From Planctomycetota bacterium (GTDB lineage Bacteria; Planctomycetota; UBA8108; SXIK01), in assembly GCA_965223845.1 (NCBI GenBank), contig CBDCXR010000004.1:3744001-3808000 (forward strand): a DNA stretch of 64,000 nt. Direction: 5' to 3'. The notes under the pieces were generated by a model. The model searched no databases. It saw nothing but the letters and a program-made list of their open reading frames with translations, and had not been told where the DNA came from. This document shows, piece after piece, positions 16,419-18,868 of the stretch; within the stretch, counting starts at the first letter, position 1, and each line of letters starts with the position of its first letter. The translations under genes and the position numbers were made by a program.

Positions 16419-16614
16419 CGGAGATCTCGAGCAAGCGCGGAGACGAAAACGAAGGAGAGAGTCTACCGCCATTCCGCCTTGCGCGCGGCGCGATTGCGCG
16501 CGGGAATCGCCAGGGGGTAGGATCGGAGCCGGCTCGCGGGGGTGACGCTGCGAGCCGAGAACCGGTCACGCCTACGTACGATCACTTCTCCCGATATCTC
16601 TATCGAGGTTTCCC

Positions 16615-17433
16615 TTGGGCTATCCCTTCGCCATCTGCAGCGAGCTTTTCTCGACTCCGATCGACGAAACCATCCGGACAGTCGCGGCGCTCGGGTTCGC
16701 GGGCATCGAGATCGCGCCCTTCAACATCGCCGAAGACGTGCGCGAGGTCTCCGCCTCGCGGCGGCGCGAAATTCGCAGCATCGCTGACGGCGAGGGAATC
16801 GAGATCGTCGGGCTCCACTGGCTTCTCGTCTCGCCGAAAGGCCTCCACCTCACGTCGGCGGATGCTTCGATCCGCGAGCGGACCGCCGAGTATTTGAGCG
16901 CCCTCGCTCACTTCTGCGCGGATCTCGGCGGGAGGGTCATGATCCTCGGGTCGCCGCAGCAGCGAAACCTCTCGCCGGCGGACGACCGCCCGAGCGCCGT
17001 CAAGCGCGCGGCCGACGTGCTCGCTACCGCGGGAGAGGCCTGCGCGGAGCGTGAGGTCCGCCTCCTCGTCGAGGCGCTTCACCCAGCCGAGACGAACTTC
17101 CTTCAGACGATCGAGGAGGTGCTCGCGCTGAACGCGGAGCACGGCCACCCCGCGATCGGATACATGCTCGACTGTAAAGCGATGTCGGGAATGCCCGACG
17201 GCGTCGTCGGCACGATCGAAAAGCACGGACGCGATGCCGGCCACTTCCACACGAACGATCCGAGCGGCGCCGGGCCCGGAATGGGCGAGCTCCAGTTCGG
17301 CCCCGTCATGTCCGCTCTTTCTCGGAGCGGCTACGAGGGATGGGTCTCGTCGGAGCCGTTCATCTACGAGCCGGATCCCGCGACGGTCGCGCGCACGGCG
17401 CTCGCGACGCTGCGGCAGGCGGAAACCGCCTGA
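16615..17433 (+). CDS. Sugar phosphate isomerase/epimerase (xylose isomerase-like TIM barrel)
   Basis: FAICSE, GIEIAPF, GLHWLL, LGSPQQR, EAL..ETNF, LDCKAM, HFHTND, WVSSEPF; TTG start after GAGG. Confidence 0.9.
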   Translation: MGYPFAICSELFSTPIDETIRTVAALGFAGIEIAPFNIAEDVREVSASRRREIRSIADGEGIEIVGLHWLLVSPKGLHLTSADASIRERTAEYLSALAHFCADLGGRVMILGSPQQRNLSPADDRPSAVKRAADVLATAGEACAEREVRLLVEALHPAETNFLQTIEEVLALNAEHGHPAIGYMLDCKAMSGMPDGVVGTIEKHGRDAGHFHTNDPSGAGPGMGELQFGPVMSALSRSGYEGWVSSEPFIYEPDPATVARTALATLRQAETA

Positions 17434-17545
17434 TCGCGACCACTCCGCGGGTCGATCGGTCCTTACCGGAAGGAATCCGCCGCGCTGACGGCGCCCGACG
17501 GCCGCCGGGTCGGCCGGTCGCGAGGCTGCCGACGGACGGCCACGG

Positions 17546-17575
17546 TTGCGGGAGAGACCGAAACGACGGTACAAT
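17546..17575 (+). promoter_or_regulatory. Putative sigma70 promoter of the small basic ORF
   Basis: TTGCGG (17546-17551), 18-nt spacer, TACAAT (17570-17575). Confidence 0.5.
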
Positions 17576-17617
17576 CCGGCCCTTTGTCCCGCCGCCCCGT
17601 CGAGGAGCAGACGCAGA

Positions 17618-17698
17618 ATGCGCAAGAAGCACCGAGGCCGTCGCAAGATGGGCCAGAAGAAACGCCGCGCTCGGAAGAAGCGGCGCATGAAGAAGTAG
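17618..17698 (+). CDS. 26-aa Lys/Arg-rich peptide MRKKHRGRRKMGQKKRRARKKRRMKK, candidate small ribosomal or nucleic-acid-binding protein
   Basis: ATG..TAG in an intergenic gap, GAGGAG SD at 17602-17607, upstream promoter, downstream hairpins. Below the ORF-track length cutoff. Confidence 0.75.
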   Translation: MRKKHRGRRKMGQKKRRARKKRRMKK

Positions 17699-17705
17699 AG
17701 TTGTC

Positions 17706-17758
17706 GCGGCGTCCCTTCGCCCGCGGAGCGCGAGGGGCCGCACGAGAGAGACTCTCGT
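17706..17758 (+). terminator. Tandem hairpins after the small ORF (possible terminator or stabiliser)
   Basis: GCGG..CCCTTCGC / GCGAGGGG.CCGC stem, then ACGAGAG-AGA-CTCTCGT. No U-tract. Confidence 0.4.
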
Positions 17759-17824
17759 AGATCGCGCGACTCCTCAGCGCAGCGGGGCAGGTCGCTCCGC
17801 CGCGAACACTGCGATCGAACGTAA

Positions 17825-18868
17825 GTGACGACACCGCCTCTCGGCCGAATGACGTTCGAGCTTCCGCAGTCGCCCTCTGCGTCCGTGCGTCGGAGCCAGT
17901 TCCGGAATGCGCTCGACGTCGGCTGGGAAAAGGCCCGCGCGAACGCCCGGTCGGCGGAAGGTCTCGAGTACGATCCCGCCGACTCCCGCGTCGTTGTGAG
18001 GGGCGCATTCCGGTACCGATACCTGCCCGGACGCGCCGCGCGGCCGCGGTCTCGTGCCCGCGGACAGCCGGGCGATCTCTTCCTCGAGCACTCCGCGTGC
18101 GCGTTCGACGAGGACGACTTCCTCCGCCGAATCTTCCTCACCGTCGAGCGACGAGGCCGGGCTTACGGGTTGACCGCGAATCGCTACCCCGTCGTCTCCC
18201 GGCATTTTCTCATCGCGCGCGATCGCGGTGCGAATGAAGCCGAGCTCAGTCAACGCCTCTACGGGCCGGACGAGCTCGCAGACATGATTCTCCTCCTCGT
18301 CGCGATCGGTCCACCGCTCCGCTTTTTCTTCAACTCGAACCCGGCGAGCGATGGCTCGGTGAGCGGTTCGAGCGTGAATCACTGGCACTTTCAGTGCTTC
18401 GCGGAGGACGTCGGGGCGTCGGGCCCGATCTTCGACGACACCTCGGCGGCGGTGACCATCGCCCCGGGGGTCACCGCCGGTCGCGTACCCGACTGGCGGG
18501 CTCACCACGCGTTCGTCGACGGCGACGCTCGATCGGTCGACGCGGCCGCGCGCGCGCTCTGGTCACTCGTCGATTCGGTCCACGAGATCGGCGCCGCCTA
18601 CAACGTCGAGATCGCCGCGCGGAAGGACGCGACATTCCGCGCTCTCGTGTTCCCGCGCGCGCCGGCGGCGGATCGCACGCTCCCGACGGGCGGTCTTCTC
18701 CGCGCGAGCTTCGGCGGCTGCGAGCTGACCGGAGACCTCGTCATCGACGATGTCAAAGCGTTCGACTGGATCGCCGAGAACGCCCAAGCCGCCGACACGC
18801 TCACCGAGGTTCGCTACGAAGAGACCACGCGGCCGGTACCCGGTCTCTCCCGCATCGCACCGCCCTGA
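17825..18868 (+). CDS. HIT-superfamily nucleotide-sugar/Ap4A phosphorylase-like protein (GDPGP1/VTC2/Apa1/DUF4922-like)
   Basis: ANRYPVVSRHFLI, QRL, FFFNS..GSSVNHWHFQ (HxHxQ), YNV, VFPR, GGCELTG. Confidence 0.7.
   Translation: MTTPPLGRMTFELPQSPSASVRRSQFRNALDVGWEKARANARSAEGLEYDPADSRVVVRGAFRYRYLPGRAARPRSRARGQPGDLFLEHSACAFDEDDFLRRIFLTVERRGRAYGLTANRYPVVSRHFLIARDRGANEAELSQRLYGPDELADMILLLVAIGPPLRFFFNSNPASDGSVSGSSVNHWHFQCFAEDVGASGPIFDDTSAAVTIAPGVTAGRVPDWRAHHAFVDGDARSVDAAARALWSLVDSVHEIGAAYNVEIAARKDATFRALVFPRAPAADRTLPTGGLLRASFGGCELTGDLVIDDVKAFDWIAENAQAADTLTEVRYEETTRPVPGLSRIAPP

Follow-up and report, generated by a model that had tools for sequence, protein, structure and literature searches.

The window, that is, the whole 64,000-nt stretch of planctomycete DNA analyzed in this study, contains a 391-nt gap between two larger open reading frames (ORFs), and within this gap lies a short frame whose translation consists largely of lysine and arginine. 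The original prediction described this frame as a hidden 26-aa gene that might encode a lineage-specific small ribosomal protein. We therefore asked whether the gene is real, how widely it is distributed and whether its product can be placed among the known tiny basic peptides of the ribosome.

Structure of the mini-gene and its expression signals

Direct reading of the sequence placed the start codon ATG at 17618 and the stop codon TAG at 17696–17698. The coding sequence (17618–17698, plus strand) thus comprises 26 codons followed by TAG, and its product, MRKKHRGRRKMGQKKRRARKKRRMKK, contains 9 lysines and 9 arginines among 26 residues (69% Lys/Arg) and neither aspartate nor glutamate. Length and charge bear out the likeness to the eL41/bS22/mS38 class to which the peptide had been compared. 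An in-frame TTG at 17546, which would give a 50-aa frame, was considered as the start and rejected: the open frames of relatives are only 27 codons at their shortest, which identifies the ATG, and not the upstream TTG, as the start codon. The mini-gene is single-copy, with one profile match in its own genome.

Upstream of the coding sequence, on the same strand, a Shine-Dalgarno sequence, GAGGAG (17602–17607), is located 10 nt before the start codon. A −10 box, TACAAT (17570–17575), was read directly and is preceded, at a distance of 18 nt, by a −35-like hexamer, TTGCGG (17546–17551), which agrees with TTGACA at three of six positions. The same TACAAT hexamer was found in relatives: within the window's order and class it lies 48–63 nt upstream of the ATG at 15 of 20 loci, compared with 21 of 3515 background stretches of 70 nt, and TTGNNN-type hexamers were seen by eye at a similar distance. 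An SD-like word (GGAG, GAGG or AGGA) is present within 20 nt upstream of the start codon at 42 of 45 distinct family loci.

Downstream of the stop codon, a GC-rich hairpin on the plus strand (17709–17741), with no T-tract after it, appeared in both the centroid and the MFE structure, and a second plus-strand hairpin (ACGAGAGAGACUCUCGU, 17742–17758) was predicted by RNA folding. The 105-nt downstream stretch folds weakly better than its shuffles (z = −1.8), 9 of 200 of which fold equally well. A hairpin followed by a T-tract within 110 nt downstream occurs at 12 of 34 family loci, the window being without such a T-tract. A consensus scan of 17300–18000 returned no promoter and no terminator at its thresholds, TTGCGG falling below threshold, and an Rfam search of the locus gave as its best match a chance-level SorY (17.4 bits; gathering score 111). 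The claim that the gene carries its own expression signals stands, with a conserved TACAAT box and Shine-Dalgarno sequence; the weak −35 hexamer, the empty scan and the modest z score of the hairpins are caveats on the individual signals. These elements suggest a stand-alone, single-copy mini-gene that would be transcribed from a sigma-70-type promoter with a weak −35 and a conserved TACAAT −10 element; the transcript would carry a leader of about 40 nt that includes a strong Shine-Dalgarno sequence, then the 26 codons, and then the GC-rich hairpins past the stop.

The ORF is conserved and its peptide is under purifying selection

A six-frame search of related genomes recovered a full-length ORF in 22 of 41, at 72–100% identity. 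The matches were distributed over four families (3/3 genomes in f1, 13/14 plus one weak match in f2, 2/3 in f3 and 3/4 in f5). The same search found none in the two genomes of f4 and just one weak, chance-level match (E 2.6) among 14 genomes of the nearest outgroup, f6; in the 301-genome sample described below, the nine f6 genomes gave no strong match to any of the three peptide types. G017, the one f2 genome that lacks a strong match, is 80% complete and has an open frame of 26 codons at C33:1826–1897 (46% identity, E 0.88), possibly a diverged copy.

An ATG-to-stop ORF of 26–28 codons was present at all 20 loci fetched, which represent 17 distinct nucleotide sequences. Within codons 1–23 of these loci, the numbers of variable columns at codon positions 1, 2 and 3 were 8, 5 and 22, respectively, and the mean pS was 0.63 compared with a mean pN of 0.07. 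The conserved peptide has 17 invariant residues. Comparison of nucleotide identity between the ORF and its flanks did not discriminate between them. These data show strong purifying selection acting on the amino-acid sequence, and that 17618–17698 is almost certainly a real gene. The hidden gene is thereby confirmed by one of the checks that had been proposed for it, namely conservation of the ORF together with synonymous divergence, in which third-position variation proved dominant.

Membership in an unnamed Planctomycetota family

Judged by its sequence, the window peptide is a member of an unnamed Planctomycetota family of stand-alone ORFs of 25–31 codons with the core R-R-K-[ILMV]-G-x-K-K-R (the RRKxGxKKR family). 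Members were accepted as stand-alone ORFs within this length range that carried the RRK-[ILMV]-G-x-KKR core and showed order-specific similarity to other members. In the family alignment A4, residues R8, R9, K10, G12, K14, K15, R16 and R19 are invariant, and the family profile matches the window ORF at E 2e-8. When the window clade was aligned with the forms of other families, none of 2000 shuffles reached the real alignment score, and the two groups are therefore clearly homologous.

Iterated profile searches of 301 sampled Planctomycetota genomes gave 46 matches at E ≤ 0.05, of which 42 were full-length and came from 12 families. The gene is thus not lineage-specific in the narrow sense in which it had been presented. 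Forms from other families include MGTKKTGKGRRKIGRKKRRARAKIRHRKG (f9, 16/16), MAFKPRRRRKIGSKKRR... (f59), MAKPRRRRKIGSKKRRARWKVR... (f85) and MASGKKTGRGRRKIGSKKRRARRRRRKKRGK (f19). A pattern search yielded 74 matches, 12 of which were confirmed; 11 of these are titled Planctomycetota or Planctomycetia, and one is titled 'uncultured bacterium'. When ten exact peptides were sought in a collection of about 15 billion proteins, eight, including that of the window, were absent, one was present without a name and a 29-aa form was listed as 'hypothetical protein'. The 50-aa in-frame extension of the window peptide, used as a query, retrieved only four annotated proteins, unnamed or 'hypothetical', in which the same peptide had been called with too long an N-terminus.

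The 29-aa form, QDT98137.1 of Gimesia aquarii ('hypothetical protein'), belongs to the same family and has an identical core, GRRK[IL]GxKKRR. It differs from the 26-residue window peptide in its length, in its N-terminus MGTKKTGKG and in its C-terminal RH[RK]K, which is missing from the window clade. At another locus (L034, minus strand), about a dozen heptamer repeats (GTACCAA or GAACCAA) begin approximately 15 nt past the stop codon of a 31-aa form.

bS22 reference sets

The passages on bS22 in three reports (PMC10618245, PMC7797042, PMC12123416) describe it as a polybasic helix of 30–33 aa that occupies an h44/h45 pocket and is often unannotated. In those passages it is a component of Flavobacterium, Porphyromonas, Borrelia and Mycobacterium ribosomes, and the mycobacterial protein shares merely 19% identity with that of Flavobacterium and Borrelia. 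The Borrelia paper predicts further unannotated bS22 genes and places eL41/eS32, a very basic helix of 25 aa, in the equivalent small-subunit pocket (PMC10618245). In Supplementary Note 4 of the same paper, the sequence printed as the Flavobacterium bL38 query is identical in every letter to the mycobacterial bS22 of Note 1, apparently through a copying error.

As a reference for the Bacteroidota/Borrelia type, a 9-residue motif taken from the printed sequences was used to collect 118 loci, all of which are ORFs of 28–31 codons. Most are from Bacteroidota; Ignavibacteria, Chlorobiaceae, Treponema, Borreliella, Omnitrophota and Neomarinimicrobiota contributed one or a few loci each. Their 59 distinct peptides constitute profile A3, in which M1 P2 G4 ... 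T14 H15 K16 R17 K18 K19 ... R25 are invariant. As a control, A3 recovered the ribosome chains 7jil_5, 9i5v_10 and 8fmw_V.

Neither the window peptide nor its sister forms matched an NCBIfam or Pfam family at E ≤ 10. The same libraries were evaluated with the 59 true members of the Bacteroidota/Borrelia type: NCBIfam named none of them, and PF08213 reached 14, weakly (best E 0.019). Because true bS22 proteins of this type are also missed, the blank results for the window peptide carry no weight.

Direct comparison with known ribosomal peptides

The Bacteroidota/Borrelia type of bS22 (Fjoh_1533; bb0822; chains 7jil_5, 9i5v_10 and 8fmw_V) is likewise encoded by a stand-alone gene and, in the descriptions given by two of the reports, often missed by annotation (PMC10618245, PMC7797042). 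With 28–31 residues, about 57–61% Lys/Arg and a central stretch of basic, hydrophobic and small residues, it resembles the window peptide, which is 3–5 residues shorter and lacks the signature MP[SCN]G...K[IMV][AS]THKRKK...NRHK; P2, G4, T14 and H15, all invariant in A3, were not found in register. Mycobacterial-type bS22 and the C-terminus of mS38 (PF08213 COX24_C, AURKAIP1) agree with the window peptide in size, charge and stand-alone layout, whereas their N-terminal M[GS]S[VL][VIL]KK is absent from it. The likeness to eL41/eS32 (25 aa), which is one strongly basic helix of comparable length, was drawn by size and description.

Sequence comparisons of the window peptide with the Bacteroidota/Borrelia type gave no support for homology at the level of residue order. 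Searched against the genome of the window, A3 did not report the window ORF at E ≤ 10. In tests against composition-matched shuffles of the window peptide, 825 of 1000 scored at least as well with the Bacteroidota/Borrelia-type HMM, and 148 of 400 shuffles did at least as well in global alignment. Profile–profile comparison with hhalign paired KHRGRRKMGQKKRR with KKRKRHKVATHKRK over 14 columns at P 0.019, which speaks for a link, but at a probability of only 2.5%. In the reverse direction, the family profile found nothing in five genomes that carry Bacteroidota/Borrelia-type bS22.

The other models behaved similarly. The ORF was not matched by PF08213 COX24_C (cut-off 23 bits), which in a six-frame search of the window's genome scored 10.6 bits, at another place only, and 993 of 1000 shuffles aligned with the PF08213-type peptides of Planctomycetota at least as well as the window peptide did. 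The Thx model PF17070 (cut-off 29.7 bits) matched no peptide locus in five family-carrying genomes, its best score anywhere being 17.6 bits. No match among PDB sequences was obtained with profile A1, which represents the window's own order, or with either of two sister forms. The profile comparison with bS22 and COX24_C models, which had also been proposed as a check, was thus negative for the window peptide.

Some sister forms gave a different picture. Their resemblance to the bS22 types is suggestive, in tests that are interdependent and uncorrected for multiple testing: in alignment with the Bacteroidota/Borrelia type, the real score was reached by 2/400 shuffles for the f19 form, by 3/400 and 21/400 for f59 forms and by 9/400 to 48/400 for f85 forms; with the HMM of that type it was reached by 2–6/1000 shuffles, and for f9 forms aligned with the PF08213 type by 27–76/1000. 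A ten-residue motif, [KR][KRH][KR]-hydrophobic-[GAS]-x-[KH]K[KRH][KR], was dropped as a common signature. It had been derived after seeing the data, arose in 133 of 20,000 shuffles of the window peptide and failed among PF08213-type (0 of 11) and Planctomycetota Bacteroidota/Borrelia-type (1 of 12) peptides.

Three peptide types do not co-occur in the sampled Planctomycetota

The distribution of the three peptide types was determined in one sample of 301 Planctomycetota genomes. Bacteroidota/Borrelia-type bS22 was found in 14 genomes of five families (f18, f21, f51, f75 and f82), PF08213-type bS22 above the Pfam cut-off in 15 genomes of 13 families, and the RRKxGxKKR family in 42 genomes of 12 families. 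Two further weak matches of the Bacteroidota/Borrelia type were rejected as spurious, since they are not peptide genes. In all three types the genes are stand-alone ORFs of 22–37 codons whose products are 56–63% Lys/Arg.

No two types were found together in any of the 71 carrier genomes or 30 carrier families, and 230 of the 301 genomes had none of the types, in a sample whose genomes are related and not independent. Under independence, with kinship ignored, only about 4.7 double carriers would be expected among the 301 genomes. Mutual exclusivity is the pattern expected of one ribosomal site served by alternative peptides, and we regard it as modest evidence for such a site.

Canonical bS22 genes of both known types are accordingly present in Planctomycetota (loci L196–L209 and L212–L223), in genomes other than that of the window. 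Many of the planctomycete Bacteroidota/Borrelia-type genes start with GTG or TTG (VPCG.../LPCG...), as the Borrelia gene does, and several planctomycete PF08213 matches extend beyond the stop codon.

A bS22 counterpart is the best reading

Among the roles considered, the window peptide would most likely be the bS22-equivalent 16S rRNA pocket peptide of Planctomycetota, a reading that we favor with moderate confidence. It is the best reading because the types exclude one another and because size, charge and the single-copy, stand-alone layout agree with those of bS22. In terms of descent, the peptide would probably be a fast-diverged bS22 homologue. The ribosomal role originally suggested for it thus gains from the lack of co-occurrence and from the bS22-like residue order of some sister forms, while the direct sequence tests on the peptide itself fail to bear it out. 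Within the literature library searched, no paper linked bS22 with Planctomycetes, and no planctomycete ribosome structure was found. By analogy with bS22, the peptide would adopt its fold, a short helix that may be kinked, only once embedded in a 16S rRNA pocket formed by helices h2, h27, h44 and h45 at the subunit interface, where it would neutralize phosphate charge, stabilize h44 near the decoding center and contact 23S rRNA.

An alternative with a smaller but appreciable chance of being correct is that the product is a real polybasic microprotein and not a bS22 equivalent, acting elsewhere on the ribosome (like bL37 or Thx), on another structured RNA or in protamine-like, nucleoid-compacting binding of DNA. 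Planctomycetes have condensed nucleoids, which counts in favor of the protamine-like version. The failed matches to bS22 models and profiles, and an order-specific similarity of the window peptide to both bS22 types no better than that of shuffles, also agree with this alternative, as do the location of the gene amid metabolic genes and the 230 genomes without any type, which imply that none of the three is indispensable. It leaves unexplained, however, why the family is never found in one genome with a proven bS22 type, why length, charge and gene layout are those of bS22 and why the residue order of sister forms resembles that of the Bacteroidota/Borrelia type. Thx in particular is disfavored by the lack of a match to its model. 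Moreover, to our knowledge, the conserved bacterial peptides of such size and charge whose target is known are ribosomal.

It also seems doubtful, although conceivable, that the RRKxGxKKR peptides arose independently as a third family and replaced canonical bS22 in some Planctomycetota. If this were true, three mutually exclusive, sequence-unrelated peptides would occupy one rRNA pocket within a single phylum, and tiny basic peptides would have been re-invented at the bS22/eL41/mS38 site again and again, instead of being inherited.

If instead the family is the planctomycete bS22, as we favor, this protein would be far more widespread, and would evolve far faster, than is apparent from the three structural reports, and Planctomycetota, with their three exclusive types, would provide a natural experiment in peptide replacement near the decoding center and the aminoglycoside site. 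More generally, tiny basic ribosomal peptides lie below the limits of gene callers and outside curated models. Because they escape both, and because NCBIfam names none of the 59 members of a proven bS22 type, ribosome parts lists are incomplete for whole phyla. A concrete target sequence is now available for planctomycete ribosome maps or top-down proteomes.

Genomic neighborhood

The upstream neighbor of the mini-gene (16615–17433) is a xylose-isomerase-like TIM-barrel gene (PF01261, E 2e-35). The downstream neighbor (17825–18868, plus strand) is a co-directional ORF of 347 aa that begins 127 nt from the mini-gene; it has no Pfam or NCBIfam family, its only matches being DUF4922 (E 0.11) and a chance-level NCBIfam one. 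The neighbors differ between families: the TIM-barrel isomerase is seen in the window, and other families have MBL-fold, DHDPS (downstream in f2) or aldo/keto reductase genes. No gene with a ribosomal or translation function was found next to the mini-gene. Clustering of the flanking ORFs of 69 loci by blastp, which is made noisy by shadow ORFs, gave clusters within families only and none joining peptide types. The expression signals of the mini-gene are thus conserved while its neighbors change.

The close spacing to a co-directional gene, with GC-rich hairpins in between, raised the possibility that the frame encodes a regulatory leader peptide, or acts as an upstream ORF, and controls 17825–18868. 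We consider this very unlikely, since the amino-acid sequence is itself under strong purifying selection and the supposedly controlled gene is not constant, being a 347-aa protein without a family here, DHDPS in f2 and others elsewhere. The terminator-like hairpins with T-tracts that follow the ORF at some family loci, and the lack of an Rfam element at this locus, also argue against a leader. Variation of the neighbors between families argues that the mini-gene is an independent transcription unit.

That there is no gene at all, and the frame arose by chance in an AAG-rich patch or owes its conservation to a non-coding RNA or the opposite strand, would fit an ORF below gene-caller length limits, an exact peptide missing from the protein collections and the overlap with long opposite-strand shadow ORFs, but is effectively refuted by the codon-position pattern and the excess of pS over pN, and further opposed by the start and stop codons retained at every fetched locus, the SD-like words and the chance-level Rfam score. 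The frames that overlap the mini-gene and its neighbors in the window, 16600–18141 (minus strand, 513 aa), 17463–18008 (minus strand, 181 aa) and 17340–17690 (plus strand, 116 aa), look like GC-rich shadow ORFs that could potentially mislead gene callers.
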